Positions 32,507 to 42,559 of a DNA stretch of 64,000 nucleotides are shown piece after piece. The translations under genes and the position numbers were made by a program. The stretch is from Lytechinus pictus (lineage: Eukaryota), in contig NC_087245.1 in assembly GCF_037042905.1 (NCBI RefSeq), positions 1,550,001 through 1,614,000 on the forward strand, read 5' to 3'. Every line of letters begins with the position of its first letter. Positions within the stretch are counted from its first letter, which is position 1. Under the pieces are notes generated by a model. The model did no database searches. It was not told where the DNA came from and saw only the letters and a list, made by a program, of their open reading frames with translations.

Positions 32507-33077
32507 CCCGGGGGGGCCACTTCCATTGGCGAGTGGATACCATGCGCGACCATGGGGTCTCGAAAAGCACCCTAAACACGTAATTTCCATATGCTGAAAA
32601 TGCACCCCTTAACAAGTATTGGCGTGTGAAACCCTACCCTTAACAAGTATTGGAAACAAAACGATACTCTTTGGCTTTGCAAATATTCCCTGAAATGAAC
32701 CCCTAAACAAGTACAGAAATATTTTAATGTAACGGGTCCTACGGTCGTCGGTTTTACCTTTATACACATCATTTGGTTATTAAAGTACGACGCCACCTTC
32801 TACACCTCGTGCAAATCGGACTCTAAACACGTAGTGTTGGGGCAAAAGGGACATCCTTTTTAAAACATTTTAATTTTGTTTTATCATCCCCGCAAATTTG
32901 ACCCTAAACACGTAACTTTCTTAGCGAAATAGATACCCTTTTTTCATTATTTTTGTGTTTTTGATACCCTTATCACGTTACGTACGTAACGTGCCCTATC
33001 GTGAAAAAGACATCCTTTTTACGTGTTTTTTTGGTCGCGCATGGTATCCACTCGTCAATGTAAGTGGCCCCCCCGGG
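32507..33077. mobile_element. MITE with CCCGGGGG... TIRs and 8-bp TSD
   Basis: ~47-bp TIR (CCCGGGGGGGGCCACTT.CATTG.CGAGTGGATACCATGCGCGACCA); TSD AGATCTAG at 32499-32506 and 33078-33085; related fragments at ~300-500, ~2400-2765 and 43227-43342. Confidence 0.88.
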
Positions 33078-33482
33078 AGATCTAGTCACGTATTGTATTA
33101 ATTACTGGACACTATCATGATTCCCGACGCACATATTACTGCGTACGAAAACAATTTCGTACCGTAAGGCTTCTGCAGTTCAATTTCACAGAGCAATAGT
33201 ATACTATAGTGAGTGATTGTATTAGTATTACCGACCGGCCTTGTAAGTTGTATTACCGTAAGGGTACTAGTATTCAACCCGTTTGAAGAGTTTCCTCAAA
33301 TATATAGAAATATAGAATTTACCTGAATTTCAGACCCGTCTTATTTCCAAGAGCAAATGCTGGTTATTCTTTTTCCGTTATCTTTTTCTTCAACCAGTTG
33401 ACTGTGTGCGCGGGCGATCGAATTATACGGCGACGGATTTTGGTACTAGTATTCAACCCGTCGGTACTAGTATTCAACCTAG

Positions 33483-34025
33483 TGTTGTAAAAATGAAAGT
33501 TGTGGGTTACAGATATGTGATGGCACGAGACACATACGATTATGATGGGCGAGTGGTTTAAACTTACAATTACAACACTGACAAGGATTAGGACTCACTA
33601 ATACACAAATGGGTTACCGACGGTACGAGACAGTGACAACAACTAATACTCACCTGACACTTGTACAGACGATGCCACACGGTAGATAAACAGGTATACT
33701 AATTCTATGTTGCTTCTATGTTACTTGTAGACCATGGCGCCTGGTGGGGAACAGCTGGGATGCATGTCCACACTCGATGGCGTCTCTGGGTCTTCTCTCT
33801 GTGGTGTCGGGATTCAATCTCTCAGCACCAGCTTGTGTACGTGCTGTGCAACGCACACACGTAGCAGGCGTAGGAGCATATAAAGGCTCCTCCAATCAGG
33901 AGCGCTCCTCGCATACACACAGCACATACACAGACTTAATATACATGAACATAGATCAATACATATATACTAATACACAGACTAATACATATATGGTACT
34001 ACAGGTACATGGCAAATTTACTACA
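33483..34025 (-). repeat. 3' LTR (543 bp)
   Basis: Differs from the other LTR at about 7 positions by eye; preceded on - strand by the polypurine tract at ~34026-34033. Confidence 0.93.
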
Positions 34026-35068
34026 TTCCTCCCGGTTCCATCAGATTGCGACATATATTGACAAATCTATGAATTGACTATATTGTGCAATCTCAATAGA
34101 AAAATACAGATATGAAGAACTCTGACAGAGGAATGTAATATATGCCTATATGATTAAAACTGATTAAATACATGACATCAATAAAATACCTCAAATACAT
34201 AAAAAGTGTGATCTGAGGACATAAACTTGTTTCTATAATAACTTGTTCATTTAAAAAGGTTGCTGGTCCAGCAAAATCAAATATCTTATCGCTTGAGACC
34301 AGCAAATATACACTTTGAGAAACAAGAACAAGTTAATGGTAAGTAATCCGGCCAGTCTGGCCCAGTCTTGTCTATGTATTGATAGTTGAAACAAAGAATA
34401 TATTCTTATTTAGTGCAAGTCTAAAAGACTGAAAGAAGGTGTGTTCATCCTTCAAAGTGCACTTCTTTACATATAGATTGTTCAGGTTGACTCTTGGTCA
34501 GTGCTGTATATCAAGTTGTATATTGTACTATTAATAAGCATAACAATGAAATAAAGCCAATTTGGCTGGAGCTCTGTTACCAATATATAGGCCTGTACAA
34601 TGTGACCTTTACAAATATGATATATGATTGGTAATATGTTTGAGCTCTTAAAAGCATGTAAAGTAATGATACTTCAACCAGATCTGGTGCAAATAAATAT
34701 AACAACCTGGACTTGACATACATACATAGTATTTTCTCTTTGAGAAAAACTACTACTATTTCAACATCCTGTATGACAATATTTCCAGGGTTGTTTATAT
34801 TAGCCTTTGCAAACAAGGTAAAGGATCTATGGTTGAAATATCTATATATCTTTTATGAAGTATAAAATATATACAAATATGATAAAAGAATTATCTATTG
34901 CATAACCAGTGTTTGCACCAATTACTTCATATGTCACCTGAAGAGGTAAAAACTATTGAAAAATAAGAAGTGTGCCTTCACCTTCAGTGACTATTAAAAG
35001 AAATACAACGTATAACAGAAATTTCAATTGCAGGACTTTCAGCAACTGATCAAGGAGATACTACTCCA

Positions 35069-37015
35069 TTATTGGGGTGGTGGCCAGGGAGGAAGGAGCC
35101 ACGGACAAGGTATAATAAATGGGTCATTACTTAAACTACAGACATATCTCTGGTTCCACCAGAGAAGAGAACTGAGGAATTCAAGGATGGACAGCTTAGG
35201 AGGGGTACTTCCCCAAAGCATTTGCACAAGATAACTCTGCCCATGCTTGGCATCCTCAGTAGAGGCTCGACTGTCCTCTGACACAGTTACAAAACTTACA
35301 TTATCTACACCTATGGTATTAGCTGTAACATCACTTACACATGTAGTATTGACAGTTATATCGTCTACACATGTGGTATTTACAGTTACATCATCTACAC
35401 TTAAGATATCTACACGTTTTACTGCTACACGTTCTGGACAGTTCCTCTTAATGTGTCCAGATTTGTTACATGCAAAACAAACATCACGACAAGACAACTG
35501 GGATTCAGTGTCTTCTGTCGAAGGAGAATGTGTATGCCTATTCAGCTCTGGGACAGCAGTTACCGATCCCTGGACTGAGGACTGGAAGGACTTCATCTGT
35601 GCCCCTGGAGCAGATTGAATATCAACCTTCTTCTCCAGATTGGGCACTCGGTCCTCCAGACTGTTCTGACCGGAGGACTGCTGAGCATTAGAGGCATGCC
35701 CGGAAACACCCATACGGTTAACTCTGGGATCCTCCTCGACAGTATCGTAAGACCTTTGTCTTGCATACTTTAGCCGATGCTGAAACCACCGAACTAAGTA
35801 AATGGCATCATCGAGATTCCGAGGACGTGATTTGATAGCGTATTTTCCCGCTTCATGGTCTAATAAACCCTGACAAAACTTTTGCACTATTTGCCTCTCA
35901 AAAATCTCCTCAGGCAATCCGTCAAAGACGCGTGAAGCGTAGGATAGGACACGGTCGGCCCATTCCCCCTTTGTTTCGGTTGTTGCCTGCTGCGCAAAAT
36001 CAAATTGCAATTGTGCGACAGGAAATTCTTTGGAAGCAAATCTTTGCTCAAGCTTCTTGATAACATCTGTATAGGGAATGTTTAGCTTGGAAGAAACAAT
36101 AATTGATGCAAAATATTTGATTGCGCTTCCCTCAAGACAGAAGCAAAGTTCATTGAGCTGTTGGGCTTGACCCCAACCGCGATCTTCCGAATATAGCTGG
36201 AAATTACGTATAAAAGTGTGCCAACATCCTCTACCATCGAAGGTCACGTACTTGGGCAACGAGGACACTCGCGGACCAGTACACCCACGAGAATAAGATC
36301 TCAGGGCATCGCAACCTCGATCTAAGGACGGAAGCCTTGAATCTAGAGTAGATGAATGCCGAGATGATTTCAGTTCTTCTGACAATGATTTCATTTGAAC
36401 AGCCATACAGTGCATCATCATTGCTATATAAGCATCATCTTTGGAATGATCATTAGAAGTATGACAAGAAGATTGTGGATAAGCATCATATTCATTTGTA
36501 ATCTGAACCCTACTATTTGATCTGGATTCACACTGAGTATAAGATGATTGTTTGGAATCCTCACTAATATAGGGAGTATTAGGAGCATACATGTATCTAG
36601 AGTGCTCAGTATATTGTGAATGTCTATCCTGATCAACGTTGGAAGAACCATATGACCTATGACCAAAATTCCTGGAACAATCTCCATAATGATCAGTCCT
36701 AGAATAACAAGATGCATCAGGATGCAAATTATGAGCCAGAGGCTTTCTACCAGTATTGGGTTCAGCATATTTATATTGGCATTTATCAGCACATTTATAT
36801 ACAAGATCTGTTAAATCGAGATCAGATAAATAATGTATCCTTGAACAATCAAACCTCTCATAAACAAATTCATCTACAAAATTTCTTGGATAACCAAGCT
36901 TGTACAGATTATTTGCCAGTGAATACTCATATAAGTATCCCCTACTAGTATTACGACTGTCTATAATGTCTTCAACTAATCCTTGTCTTGCTCTGGCGAT
37001 TTCACTTTGCATCAT
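35069..37015 (-). CDS. Gag-like polyprotein (capsid-like domain + CCHC zinc knuckle), 648 aa
   Basis: Uninterrupted ORF inside LTR element; capsid-like block FDGRGCW..F..NF...RGW....L...L.G.A...F...Y..VI..LEQRF....Q...ET..EWADRV....F.QGL....RPRNLDDAI; knuckle CFACNKSGHIKRNC (CX2CX4HX4C). Confidence 0.88.
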   Translation of the reverse strand: MMQSEIARARQGLVEDIIDSRNTSRGYLYEYSLANNLYKLGYPRNFVDEFVYERFDCSRIHYLSDLDLTDLVYKCADKCQYKYAEPNTGRKPLAHNLHPDASCYSRTDHYGDCSRNFGHRSYGSSNVDQDRHSQYTEHSRYMYAPNTPYISEDSKQSSYTQCESRSNSRVQITNEYDAYPQSSCHTSNDHSKDDAYIAMMMHCMAVQMKSLSEELKSSRHSSTLDSRLPSLDRGCDALRSYSRGCTGPRVSSLPKYVTFDGRGCWHTFIRNFQLYSEDRGWGQAQQLNELCFCLEGSAIKYFASIIVSSKLNIPYTDVIKKLEQRFASKEFPVAQLQFDFAQQATTETKGEWADRVLSYASRVFDGLPEEIFERQIVQKFCQGLLDHEAGKYAIKSRPRNLDDAIYLVRWFQHRLKYARQRSYDTVEEDPRVNRMGVSGHASNAQQSSGQNSLEDRVPNLEKKVDIQSAPGAQMKSFQSSVQGSVTAVPELNRHTHSPSTEDTESQLSCRDVCFACNKSGHIKRNCPERVAVKRVDILSVDDVTVNTTCVDDITVNTTCVSDVTANTIGVDNVSFVTVSEDSRASTEDAKHGQSYLVQMLWGSTPPKLSILEFLSSLLWWNQRYVCSLSNDPFIIPCPWLLPPWPPPQ

Positions 37016-39540
37016 TATGAATTCCAGATAAATTCAGGAAAGTATTATTGATGATCACCTTGGTGATTCAAAGGCATATTCTTAAACATATTTTAAATGA
37101 TACTTTCATTTATTCAATGATCTACAGTGTATTAAACTTAGCAGAATAAAGCTTGCAGATCAGTGAAAGAACTTAACTAGGTTTGTTTATACTTGTGTCA
37201 CTGAACACACTTACTGCCAAGGAAAGAGTGAAGTACTGCAATACTTGTACTGCTAAGAACAAGCGTCTGACTCTGAATATTAATAATAAATGTACACACT
37301 CCTGTAGCAATGGATGTATTCAGTGAAAGTATATTTACAAAGTACAGTGCAGCTTCAAGTTTCAGAAACTACACTTGTAGAATAGAATATCAAACTTCTA
37401 CTACTCTGAGTAATCGCAGAAGTGTCAATAAGTTTTACTTACTCTACGACTATTAAAAGAACCTAACAAGGATTCAACTTATCGAAGCCTCAACGATTTA
37501 CAGGAGTAGCATTCAATAATAATTGTTTATTTCTGATGAATGCAATATATAAATGCAATATATAAATGTTTATTTCTGATGAATGCAATATATAAATGTC
37601 AAACACACATTTATCCCACATCCAATTTTCTTTCTTTTTTTTCCTCTTTTTTTTTTTTCTTTTTTTTTAGAATGGGGATAAGTTACCAACTAAAAAATGA
37701 TGAGACTACTATTTAGAAATCAACTTGCGCAAAATGACAGCAGTGAATTTTGTACTTCACTGATGAATGGGATTCTAGAGCCTGAATAGAAATTTGCAAA
37801 TTTTCAGCGCAAGAATGATGCTCCAAAAATACAAAAGCAACTATATGAAAAAAATAATTTCAAAGAATGTTGATATCAATTATTCTGATATCAAAGATCA
37901 ATAGTATCTGTACTTTTCACTTAAAATCAGAATCAAGAGTTGATTGAATTAAAATAAGTATTTTCAAGAACCTTATTAAAATTTATTCAGAACTTTTTGA
38001 CCTTTACTTGAGAACAATCTTTCTTTTAAAAATATAGAAATTAAATCTCTCATATAGGAATTAAATTTACAAGCAAGAATTATTCCAAAGAAAAATTCCT
38101 GATCTAACAATGCTTGTTAAAAAGTAATCTACTAAGAAAACCTGAATTTCAAACAGACAGAAAGACAATCCAGGATAACCTCCTAGAAAAATTTCCTACA
38201 AAGAACTAAGGGCCTGAAATTAAATTCCAAGTCCTCGTTCAAACAAGTGTACACCGAGTCAAAAGGCAAAGCAAAACAATTGCACTTGTTGGCTCCAGGT
38301 ATACACGGTCAGGAAATTACAAACACCTGAAAGATGAACAAGATTATCTGCAACAGAAAATTCCCTAAACTATATGAAGATACTAGATCTATTCGGGATT
38401 TATTAAATTCTCACTTTGGAATTCTTCTGATCCAATAAAACGAGTATTTTTATGGTTAAATTTCGAGCTAGTTTTACAAAAATCAGAAGTGTCACAAAGA
38501 TCTGAAATATATTTTAGGTAAAAAACCAATTCACTGCTCTAACTCAACTGATAAGCTCAAATTCAAGAGGTTAAAGGAATTCGAATAAATTATTTTAATT
38601 CCCAGTAAGAGTCGAATTGACATCAAACAATGCAAAGACAAAGTAGTGATAGTGCTGCCTACAGCACAACACCTACACGTGAGATAGGCACACGCTATTG
38701 CCGTTGGCTGGTGGAGATCTACTTGATCGACACCGTCACCGGACAAAGCTGAAAAAAGTACAAACGAGAATATGGCAATATGGGAACAAGGAACTTAGCT
38801 CAATTCACGTAAATATTGAGTCAAGAGACAATTGGCAGCTAAATCCAGCAAATTGTCAGTAAAAACTGACGAAAAGGAAACTCGTTCAAAATTTGCCTTC
38901 ACGGAAACGATAGCCGGCTCGTGAACGTTACCCCTGCCTGGAGCTACCGGCCAGACGGAGAGGTGCGCTGCGCTGGTGTTGGTTGGAAACCGCGCGACGT
39001 TAAATCTAAAATTAACTAATAAAGAATGATCCAATTACAAAATCAACTTCTAGTTCTACGAGTTCCTACTTAGAACTAATCTTTAAAATAAATCAACGGC
39101 CAATCACTATAATAGTATAAAATCAGAGTTTCGCAAACTCTAACTCTGATCGACTGTTGTGTTTACGAGTCTCGATCAAGTGAAAAATATAAGTTAGAAG
39201 TCACGTGATTCGGCTCGGCAGTGCTTCACCGAGCGAGCTAGGCGATCGAGGGTAGATTGTCAATTTTTGGTCAAAACAATCTTATTACTTTTTGACTGGC
39301 AAATCAATGGAAATCAAAATCAGCACATAGATTTCTCAATAGTGATGATTCAATTTATTTCGAATCAAACCGAGACGACATATAAACATGTAACATGAAG
39401 AACATAGAGAATAATATATCTAAGTTATCAAGAAATTAATAGCCTACCGGTTTCTCTGCAAAACTACACAATTTCAAAAAATTATGGAGCCTACACCCAA
39501 CCAGCCCAAACTACCAATTATTTGATAGGGAAGATAAAAT

Positions 39541-39760
39541 TATTCAGACTTCTCTTTCTCAGTCCCAACGGGTCTGACACTGGTATTGACAGAAGTCTAT
39601 TCACATAAATATTTCAGACTTCTCTTTTTCCAGTCCCAACGGGTCTGACACTGGAATTATTATACAGAAGTCTATTCACACAAATAATTCAGACGTCTAT
39701 TTTTTCCAGTCCCAACGGGTCTGACACTGGAATTATTTATAGATGTCTATATATTCACAC
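39541..39760. repeat. Three tandem ~71-76 bp stem-loop units with invariant 24-nt core CAGTCCCAACGGGTCTGACACTGG
   Basis: Cores start at 39560, 39631, 39707; each is enclosed by an outer inverted repeat AGACTTCT...AGAAGTCT (AGACGTCTAT...ATAGATGTCT in unit 3). Confidence 0.9.
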
Positions 39761-40992
39761 ACAATTCTACCGAGTGGGTGAACAATTAGCAACAATGAAT
39801 AACAAATAACTTTTATATTTAGACAATGACAATTTATTATTACAAGAAAGTGAAGAAACAATCACAATATCATATGTGGTGAATGAAATGCACTGAAGAA
39901 AATTCACAAAATGTGTATTAAGAACAAAATTCAAGAGTATATTTTCAAGTTACAGGTAAGATGCGAAGCTCAGAAAACCCACCTATTTTCTAGTAACAGG
40001 TAAGATCTGAAATTCAGAAAAACCCACCTCTAACGTACCACCGACACAAGTGTAATTTCGAGTTGAGTAAAAATTCAGATTATTACTCAACCCGGCAACC
40101 AGGAGTATTAGAACTTCTAACACTCTTTCTGCCACTCAATGTGTACAGAACTGGCTGTAAAAACACTTGCCAAATGTCGATAGAAAATATATACTGGAAA
40201 TTTTATAGAAATGTATGAACAACTCTACGCCCTCAAAATATTGGTGCACTGCCCGATATGCAAGAATATGAAATTGTAGGAAACTTATACCATCTGGAAT
40301 AATTACTGAGGATCGAGAGAAAATTTCAAGTTCAAATTAACTTTTCCAATCCAATAAATCCACCAAATACTCACACCCGACTTTTTTTTTGGAAGTGGTG
40401 TGGTGTGAATGTTCCAAATTTGAAAGAAAGCTTATAAAGACAATGGCGGACTAAAAATATCCTCGCCTAGAAGCAGATCTCAAAGAATTCACAAACAAAA
40501 GCAACGAGATGGTAAGCGACGCAAAAATATGCAAGGAACGAAATTCTCGACGGCGAGCCAAACAATAGCAGAGACTCGCGAAGAATGCGATAAGAAATGC
40601 ACGTGCAACCAAACAATGAAGGGCGTGTGCACCTTTGGTGTGCACAGAGAATAAAATGCAACGTAGTGGACATGAAATAATTTCCTAGATATGGTAAATA
40701 TATATCAAAATCCACTTGTATCAAACTAGAAATGATATCATGTACGGAAAAATGATAAAACTTAAACAAGATGTGTACGAGATGCATGCATGTAAATCCA
40801 CGCAATCACGGCACGCAAATTTACAATTAACGGTAGAGAGCGGAAAACTTCCCACTCACTCTCCGTTCGTTATACACTTCAAAATCACTCACAAATGACT
40901 TTCATGAGCAAATATGAAGTATGAACGGACATGAAATGATAAAAATGAAAATGACAGGCGCACAGGACGATCCGAAAACTCGCAATCGCCAA

Positions 40993-41535
40993 TGTTGTAA
41001 AAATGGAAGATGTGGGTTACAGATATGTGATGGCACGAGATACGATACGTTACGATGGGCGAGTGGTTTAAACTTACAATTACAACACTGACAAGGATTA
41101 GGACTCACTAATACACAAATGGGTTACCGACGGTACGAGACAGTGACAACAACTAATACTCACCTGACACTTGTACAGACGATGCCACACGGTAGATAAA
41201 CAGGTATACTAATTCTATGTTGCTTCTAAGTTACTTGTAGACCATGGCGCCTGGTGGGGAACAGCTGGGATGCATGTCCACACTCGATGGCGTCTCTGGG
41301 TCTTCTCTCTGTGGTGTCGGGATTCAATCTCTCAGCACCAGCTTGTGTACGTGCTGTGCAACGCACACACGTAGCAGGCGTAGGAGCATATAAAGGCTCC
41401 TCCAATCAGGAGCGCTCCTCGCATACACACAGCACATACACAGACTTAATATACATGAACATAGATCAATACATATATACTAATACACAGACTAATACAT
41501 ATATGGTACTACAGGTACATGGCAAATTTACTACA
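40993..41535 (-). repeat. 5' LTR (543 bp)
   Basis: Near-identical to 33483-34025; termini TGTAGTAAA...TTTACAACA on - strand; ATTGG and TTTATAT boxes near 41388-41406; CAG|GTGAGT donor at 41166-41158. Confidence 0.93.
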
Positions 41536-42559
41536 CTAGCGATGAAAGATGGCCCTGTCTCTCAATCTGCCCTTGTCCCATCCGACTATGGACTAGACCA
41601 TTTGAGATGAGACCAAACAGGGAATTAATCAAACTCAAAGCCAGAGACTTACATAGATCTAGATCTAATTTAGCAATCTAAACCCTTTTGAGATTTGCTA
41701 TCAATCCTCACTAGGTTGAATACTAGTACCATTCAGTGCAAAAGGCCATCGCCGCATAATTCGACCCTCCGCGCATACAGTCGACAGATTGACAAAGAAA
41801 ATATCGACAACAGATTACCCTGGAAATAACAAAGGTGTGAAATTAAGATAAATTCCCCATTTCTAAATATTTTGGGGAATATGTCAAAATCTTTGAATTA
41901 TGCCAGGTTGAATACTAGTACCCATACGGTACCGAACGCGCGCATCATACGCATCAGAAAATAATTTTATACGCTCAAAATTTTGCAACATCCTTCCAAA
42001 GAGAACTTGAATAGAAAGATGATGAAAAGTTGTAAAAAACACATTATCAAAGTCTTAATATTCTAAAAATAACAAAAATATGGTCAAAATAGCTCATCAG
42101 TGATTTTGTTGTTTTTTCAACTTTTCCCATAGAAAACACACGTTCGGTAATACGATACCTTTTCATGTGACCAAAATATTTCACATGCGAAGAGGGGTCC
42201 GATTGGAAGCTAATATCGTAAAAAGGACTAACGATTTCGGCAAAATTTTTACATATTTATATTTTGTAGGTAATTGTGTATTTATTGTGAAAGTTTGGTG
42301 AATTTTATGAGAATAATGTGTTTGATATGATTGAATTCATGAAAAGTGTTCGGTAATACGATCCACTACCATACCGGTACATAAAACAACATGAACAAGA
42401 ACAAGATTGCAAAAACAAGTCAAGCCTAAGGCAAAAAATTCAAACTTTTACCTTATGTATCTCTAAAATCATAAAATGACAGAAAATGCTTAAAATATCA
42501 TATAACATAGGAATTGCATTGACAATTGATATATTTTCTGACGGATATATGGGCCTATA

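Follow-up and report, generated by a model that had tools for sequence, protein, structure and literature searches.

How a long terminal repeat (LTR) retroelement that encodes a Gag protein and no enzymes could have inserted recently is the question raised by a locus of the sea urchin Lytechinus pictus. The window analysed here is a stretch of 64,000 nucleotides (C1:1550001-1614000, on contig NC_087245.1), and it contains an LTR retroelement of 8053 bp at 33483-41535, whose sense direction is the minus strand. An earlier sequence-only reading of the window had described this element as young and structurally complete, and had proposed that it represents an animal gag-only family that moved with the Pol of a helper and not a one-off deletion. 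In this study, the element was compared with the whole genome (812 Mb). It is very probably a polymorphic copy of a gag-only, Ty3/gypsy-derived family of at least 30 members, which would borrow the protease (PR), reverse transcriptase (RT) and integrase (IN) of an autonomous relative.

The element belongs to a family of at least 30 copies and is not a single-copy deletion. A genome search with the LTR, in which the best 40 of 83 candidates were scored, returned many matches paired 7.0-7.6 kb apart, distributed over many contigs. A 15-nt junction consisting of the polypurine tract (PPT) plus TGT occurs 31 times in the genome, compared with no occurrence of the reversed control, and these 31 PPT-LTR junctions correspond to 30 family loci and one autonomous element (element A, described below). 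Twenty-eight of the 30 family junctions, including a truncated copy on C17, were examined (13 and then 11 more loci were fetched), and all 28 share the same pol-less layout of LTR, 4-kb leader, gag, 1-kb tail and LTR. Each of the fetched loci (13 + 11) follows the order of the window copy, with 78-95% identity in the individual blocks, and the uninterrupted full-length copies besides the window copy measure approximately 7.05-8.16 kb. When 12 proteins (gag, pol and ORF3 of four autonomous relatives; ORF, open reading frame) were searched by tblastn against the 26 fetched family loci, gag matches alone were obtained in every locus; thus, no family member carries pol. Two subfamilies can be distinguished with the Gag protein as query: 12 full-length, stop-free copies with 86-100% identity, the window copy counted in, and 8 copies with 65-68% identity that encode 514 aa from the first Met and have an in-frame deletion of 426 bp (long and short subfamily, respectively).

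Several copies were rearranged secondarily, by an internal duplication (L044_45) or by truncation (L065, L066, L068 and L069). In L042_43 (C5:44484258-44501286), an 8-kb nested insertion is found at gag codon 6, and the LTR pair of this copy is 100% identical; the nested insertion carries an ORF of 1043 aa on the opposite strand. On C12 (L053+L054, C12:22489500-22509499) three family copies are clustered, with two short-subfamily copies forming an LTR-internal-LTR-internal-LTR tandem, which is adjoined by an inverted long-subfamily copy. The extra PPT match on C17 was considered as a helper and rejected, as it is the truncated family copy mentioned above.

Recent movement, as proposed before, is seen at several loci. 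Identical 4-bp flanks were found in 15 of the 18 copies with scorable termini, and these target-site duplications (TSDs) differ from copy to copy; the TAAA flanks of L033 were judged by eye and would make a 16th match. In seven full copies the LTR pairs are 100% identical. The window copy is flanked by CTAG on both sides (33479-33482 and 41536-41539), as the sequence-only reading had noted, and 72 RNA reads from a different animal of the same species (run X19) join position 33482 directly to 30 letters that equal window positions 41540-41569. As these reads cross an empty site with a single CTAG, the insertion in the window is polymorphic.

In the sense direction, the element consists of the 5' LTR (40993-41535), a sequence resembling a primer-binding site (PBS; 40979-40991), an ORF-less leader (37016-40978), gag (35069-37015), an ORF-less tail (34040-35068), the PPT (34026-34039) and the 3' LTR (33483-34025), all on the minus strand. 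Both LTRs are 543 bp long, as had been reported, and have TG...CA ends; their identity, by direct-repeat scan and pairwise alignment, is 98.7% (5 mismatches and 2 gap openings) rather than approximately 99%, and most of the differences are concentrated in the final ~70 nt of U5. The PPT, GGAACCGGGAGGAA, abuts the 3' LTR and is identical in the 30 family junctions and in element A. The leader of 3.96 kb is rich in A+T and family-specific: genome-wide it matched the family loci and, in addition, four short and weak stretches (72-81%, at most 300 nt) on C7 and C6. The tail of 1.03 kb is collinear in all copies. Decayed pol was a possibility for the region between gag and the 3' LTR (34026-35068), and the tail gave no Pfam, pol or ORF3 match. 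None of the 38 interior stop-to-stop ORFs of at least 45 aa outside gag had a Pfam match above noise, and Rfam had no match within 33000-42000. Immediately before the insertion site, a 20-nt unit (TACTAGTATTCAACC...) is repeated.

The PBS-like site adjoins the 5' LTR and reads TGGCGATTGCGAG, which is an imperfect complement of the 3' end of tRNA-Ser(UGA). When the tRNA genes of the genome were located and typed, the gene for tRNA-Ser(UGA) was found to end in TCGCAGCG, to which CCA is added afterwards. A perfect form of the PBS, TGGCGCTGCGAG, which matches tRNA-Ser(UGA) over 12 nt, is present in 2 of 23 copies. PBS- and PPT-like sites had both been recognised from the sequence of the window, and they are indeed found at these positions.

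The gag ORF is intact and encodes 648 aa plus stop, as previously stated, and its sole Pfam domain is a CCHC zinc knuckle of the nucleocapsid (NC) type (PF00098, 23.7 bits) at residues 512-528 (35432-35482). In an AlphaFold model, which was computed from an alignment of 20 sequences and has a mean predicted local distance difference test (pLDDT) score of only 50, the confident parts are the helical residues 1-80 and residues ~255-420, and approximately 380 of the 648 residues are predicted to be disordered. A structural search with residues 250-420 of this model matched both lobes of retroelement capsids. The top structural matches are all capsid (CA) proteins, namely dArc1 (Z 10.6, 153 residues aligned), PNMA2 (Z 9.5) and Ty3 (Z 8.2), and the separate lobes fit the N-lobe of Arc (root-mean-square deviation, rmsd, 2.0 A over 67 residues) and the C-terminal CA domain of Rous sarcoma virus (RSV CA-CTD; rmsd 2.3 A over 75 residues). 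Gag is thus modelled as a two-lobed retroviral-type CA fold (residues ~254-420, 35756-36256, pLDDT 75-93) followed by the CCHC knuckle. On the level of sequence, phmmer of Gag against PDB sequences returned zinc knuckles alone, and a profile search returned retroviral NC, in agreement with the knuckle, plus weak matches to PNMA2 and Arc.

Relatives of the CA-NC core are numerous, with 1921 proteins at E<=0.001 in an exhaustive HMMER search. Among the best 150 of these 1921, the best-matching stretch lies within residues ~120-556, with the exception of the Lytechinus pictus protein P0001, which reaches residue 648. Thus, for these best 150, residues 1 to ~120 and those past ~556 match the family alone. 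Residues 1-90 scored no better than 0.79 in the ESM Atlas, a value at noise level, and this leaves the N-terminal helical domain an orphan in that database. Among database proteins, two Lytechinus pictus gene models are the sole close matches; they are 66% and 85% identical to Gag along part of their length. The second, P0002, is named 'G patch domain-containing protein 4-like'; it matches a third of the query at 85% identity and is probably chimeric, a family copy having been absorbed into the model. Public Lytechinus pictus gene models list gag fragments as 'uncharacterized protein' and within 'G patch domain-containing protein 4-like', which matters for annotation. More distant gag sequences (33-52% identity over residues ~220-530) lie upstream of pol in complete gypsy elements of the same genome.

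Each of these autonomous relatives is a Ty3/gypsy element of 12 kb and has three ORFs. In their Gag, a helix-hairpin-helix at the N-terminus is combined with a CCHC knuckle; pol encodes PR, RT, RNase H (RH) and IN followed by a C-terminal PHD finger, and the product of ORF3 is a DNase related to TatD (PF01026, E 1e-35 and 4e-29). In several such families the pol frame is open, with a length of 1385-1469 aa, and their loci include L046, L052 (C4:15089500-15099499) and L048 (C5:24710000-24719999); our literature searches returned nothing on TatD in LTR retrotransposons. The relative closest to the family is element A (L046 with flanks L055/L056, C5:50253000-50272999, the element itself at ~50257-50269 kb). 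It has LTRs of 479 bp that are 99.8% identical, a CTGG duplication and a 1.6-kb leader, and all three of its frames are open (gag; pol, 1451 aa; ORF3, 781 aa). No second copy of its RT at 100% is present in the genome; there is one fragment at 95%, and the next families are at 80% or below.

Element A and the family share the PPT (14 of 14 nt) and the start of U3 (12 of the first 13 LTR nt), and the PBS of element A, TGGCGCTGCGA, is likewise directed to tRNA-Ser(UGA). Its gag is the closest to that of the family: identity amounts to 50% with the short subfamily (322 aa aligned) and to 42% with the window copy (400 aa aligned). A 27-nt PPT-LTR pattern was found genome-wide outside the family in element A alone. 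A sensitive blastn comparison of the window element with four relatives, element A among them, gave matches only at the gag core and at the PPT junction. As a single-copy element with these signals, element A is the best candidate helper. The sequence-only reading had suggested looking for an autonomous Gypsy element with the termini or PBS of the family; such an element exists as far as PPT, U3 start and tRNA-Ser PBS are concerned, and the U5-PBS junction found no counterpart.

A short peptide marks the point at which pol was lost. The C-terminus of the Gag ORF is CPWLLPPWPPP-Q, and the motif CPWLLPPWPPP (gag residues 637-647, 35075-35107) is identical in all 11 residues to residues 118-128 of the element A Pol, which lie upstream of the protease domain (164-247). 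Variants of the form (C/S)PW..PPWPPP are present in the pre-protease Pol of all five other relatives inspected, and the motif itself was found in 23 of 25 extracted family ORFs. The motif DNA of the window copy and of element A is identical at 25 of 33 positions, with the mismatches in separate codons and synonymous, whereas the 30 nt on either side are identical at only 3 and 4 of 30 positions, which is chance level. From the zinc knuckle to the motif, 109 residues are counted in the window Gag and, by coordinate arithmetic, approximately 107 in the Gag-Pol reading of element A. The ORF thus comprises gag and the former gag-pol spacer, which in the relatives separates the frameshift site from the protease, in one frame and ends just before the protease. 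We conclude, from this comparison of sequences, that Gag carries a small, non-enzymatic remnant of the pol frame at its end. The absence of any protease, RT, RNase H or integrase ORF that had been claimed for the element is therefore upheld by Pfam and tblastn, while the additional claim that no recognisable remnant of pol is left has to be withdrawn in view of these 11 residues. Another pol-truncated family in the same genome is represented by two copies of 98% identity (L049/L050, C10:9585000-9604999) with gag and protease only. Its second frame likewise ends in ...PPWPPP, and the likeness of its end to the window Gag tail is confined to the short motif.

Gag does not evolve neutrally across copies, although constraint on individual residues is weak. 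When 10 full-length, collinear members of the long subfamily were aligned, gag was seen to contain 9 gap runs (4.6 per kb), all in frame, at a substitution diversity of 0.026. This compares with 184 gap runs in the leader (47 in frame, 46 per kb, diversity 0.056), 29 in the tail (9 in frame, 28 per kb, diversity 0.043), and 57 and 54 in the two LTRs (14 and 8 in frame, 105 and 99 per kb, diversity 0.10). Thus, all gaps in gag preserve the frame, as opposed to approximately 26-31% in the flanks. Of 28 gag positions in 25 loci, 20 are open over the whole span between the start codon and the end defined for the family, and the eight broken genes are explained by stops (L032, L066 and L067), the nested insertion, or rearrangement and truncation. 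In neutral simulations starting from the window gag, the frame remained open in 18% of cases at 2% divergence, in 4% at 4% divergence and in 0 of 2000 at 19% divergence. The long and short subfamilies are both open at a synonymous divergence (dS) of 0.38, with an NG86 ratio of nonsynonymous to synonymous substitution (dN/dS, omega) of 0.54 between them. A codon model with 19 distinct sequences gave an omega of 0.79 (2dlnL, twice the log-likelihood difference, 6.56 versus omega 1, p ~0.01); these sequences were chosen as open ORFs of at least 500 aa, and the resulting bias on omega is small, not zero. Per region, omega was 0.58 for CA (2dlnL 10.0, p ~0.0015), 0.71 for the C-terminal tail (2dlnL 3.3), 0.88 for the N-terminal domain, 1.15 for the first disordered stretch and 0.82 for linker plus NC. 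The reading frame and the capsid core are under selection, and most of the largely disordered remainder is close to neutral.

Expression was inspected in three rRNA-depleted RNA runs, of which approximately 6% each was read. Gag is covered by sparse reads in all three runs, and for approximately 87% of these reads the first mate maps to the plus strand; if the libraries follow the common dUTP convention, the RNA of this region would be in gag sense. The tail and the 600 nt upstream of gag had no reads, at a 95% identity cut that rejects reads of other copies more often there than in gag. The left flank of the element is transcribed (33000-33461), and at 33000-33153 the RNA is very deep on both strands, with many loose ends, like a transcribed repeat.

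Retrotransposition requires Pol. Since pol is absent from the family and insertions are recent, we infer that the copies are mobilised in trans by the Pol of a helper. In such a scheme, the 5' LTR would drive transcription of the genomic RNA, which the Gag of the family itself would bind and package and which would enter particles that also hold the Gag-Pol of the helper. The primers for reverse transcription would be tRNA-Ser at the PBS and the PPT, and insertion of the copy by the helper integrase would make the 4-bp duplication. The Gag product would resemble a Gag-Pol precursor cut just before the protease, and this precursor-like Gag may co-assemble with helper proteins or be processed by them. 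A more specific proposal, which we put forward only tentatively, is that of a capsid-encoding satellite retrotransposon of an animal, whose own precursor-mimicking, motif-keeping Gag is needed in cis for packaging of its RNA. This Gag would form joint particles with the Gag-Pol of a gypsy-TatD helper, which is rare, being present as a single copy, and is outnumbered by the family about 30 to 1. If this is true, the family would be a natural animal system for testing the split of Gag and Pol between two elements. The family is young and polymorphic and has two active subfamilies; a candidate helper can be named, the exact deletion boundary bears a conserved peptide, and these properties make it testable what a pol-less element gains from a capsid gene of its own. 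The sequence-only reading had also mentioned a stand-alone RNA-packaging capsid system, for which we found no support.

Several observations weigh against the borrowing of Pol by a gag-keeping family, or at least against its individual parts. Reverse transcription and packaging are steps that we infer. The imperfect PBS of the window copy is the common one (18 of 23 copies), with ATT in place of the CT of the perfect complement, and a tRNA search for this variant found nothing tRNA-like. Past the first 13 nt, the family LTR cannot be aligned with that of element A (z 2.5 versus shuffles), the two U5 ends have just CA in common, and a search for the U5-PBS junction matched family copies in 23 of 23 cases and no autonomous element; on these grounds, the helper is not pinned down. 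A tRNA-Ser-type PBS is also used by a related family, B. Concerning gag, pairwise NG86 dN/dS within the long subfamily ranges from 0.6 to 1.2, and omega is not significantly different from 1 in four of the five regions of Gag, so that most of Gag is barely constrained. The RNA depth on gag is just 0-5, its strand depends on the assumed convention, and the reads may stem from other copies. Finally, several copies with matching TSDs (L067, L035, L064 and L036) have LTR pairs that are just 82-94% alike, and yet the gag of such copies lies within a dS of 0.03-0.05 of other copies. LTR identity is therefore not a clean clock in this family. Within the LTR, positions 251-500 form a hypervariable stretch (diversity 0.146). 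The divergent LTR pairs may be due to gene conversion between copies.

Could gag be a dispensable passenger, so that the family would in effect be a LARD-like non-coding parasite travelling in the Gag of its helper, with a frame that is open through youth alone? The overall omega of 0.79, the values of 0.88, 1.15 and 0.82 in three of the regions, the pairwise values of up to 1.2 and the predicted disorder of approximately 380 of 648 residues would be expected from such a passenger. Its frame would, however, be hit by indels like the flanks are, and instead 9 of 9 gag indels are in frame, compared with ~26-31% in the flanks, at a tenfold lower density. Youth alone also fits poorly with two subfamilies that stayed open across a dS of 0.38, an outcome seen in none of the 2000 simulations, nor does it account for the CA omega of 0.58 (p ~0.0015) or for the C-terminal motif, in which the DNA changes relative to element A are synonymous only. 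A passenger gag thus appears unlikely.

A different role for Gag is conceivable as well, as dominant-negative capsid proteins have precedents in Ty1 p22 and Fv1. The Gag of the family might mainly act against the helper or other gypsy elements, and copies would persist since either the host or the family gains when the helper is damped. Both the ratio of at least 30 copies to one helper-like element and the truncation of Gag exactly before the protease are compatible with this without being specific for it. On the other hand, the copies have complete cis signals, duplications that differ from one another and identical LTRs, which indicates that they themselves are being mobilised, and there is no sign of the single-locus conservation of a host gene, with an omega far from that of a domesticated gene. 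We therefore regard a mainly inhibitory Gag as still less probable than a passenger. It is negligibly likely that the window copy arose as an isolated internal deletion, or that the copies spread by duplication at the DNA level: all of the 28 junction loci inspected (out of 30) are without pol, flanks and 4-bp duplications differ among copies, and the reads give a precise empty site with one CTAG. The judgement of the sequence-only reading that this is no one-off deletion, and its expectation of further pol-less copies with differing TSDs (30 junctions, with 15 of 18 scored copies having a matching duplication of their own), were thus correct. Accordingly, borrowing of enzymes by a gag-only family remains the preferred explanation.

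With paired TG...CA LTRs, a TSD, a PBS, a PPT and a Gag of CA plus CCHC that is homologous to the gag of elements with PR-RT-RH-IN, the family has the features of Ty3/gypsy elements. LARD, TRIM and LTR parasites of animals such as ETn/MusD and VL30 are likewise mobilised in trans, but they are devoid of ORFs and keep only the cis signals of the helper lineage. In contrast, the family described here keeps a selected ORF of 648 aa (or 514 aa), and the no-coding definition of LARD does not apply to it. The two-lobed CA fold derived from Ty3/gypsy Gag is shared with Arc, dArc1 and PNMA2; these are, however, single host genes without LTRs, and domesticated Gag genes of this type are characterised as single- or low-copy loci under strong purifying selection, while at least 30 LTR-flanked copies with TSDs and weak constraint (omega 0.79) are found here.

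The gag-only design itself is already documented in plants, and the Lytechinus family is an animal instance of it. Our literature searches, whose coverage stopped short of subscription journals and Repbase, returned no gag-only LTR family from an animal or echinoderm. The plant TR-GAG elements are described as non-autonomous LTR elements of angiosperms with a GAG-only ORF, a size of <4 kb and a 5-bp TSD (Chaparro et al., 2015; PMC4350172). Like these, the present family has LTRs, PBS, PPT and TSD, a single GAG ORF without AP (aspartic protease), RT, RH or INT (integrase), several copies with recent activity, and a helper that is not evident from nucleotide similarity. It differs from TR-GAG as described there in its length of 8.05 kb, which is beyond the size rule of <4 kb, in its 4-kb leader, its 4-bp TSD and its sea urchin host, and also in having a nameable candidate helper with a common PPT, U3 start, PBS and peptide motif. 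In sugar beet and Triticeae, the 'semi-autonomous' families with GAG/PROT only usually keep the protease (PMC13570524). They resemble the present family as pol-less derivatives of Ty3/gypsy or copia elements that kept a structural gene and exceed the TR-GAG size limit, whereas here the ORF stops just before the protease and the host belongs to another kingdom. A two-component arrangement of a defective LTR element and an autonomous partner is also known from barley, where, according to the passage on it in the TR-GAG report, BARE-2 has no functional GAG, keeps pol and is complemented in trans by BARE-1 (PMC4350172). Complementation in trans would equally apply to the Lytechinus family, with the roles exchanged: in contrast to BARE-2, gag was kept and pol is gone.

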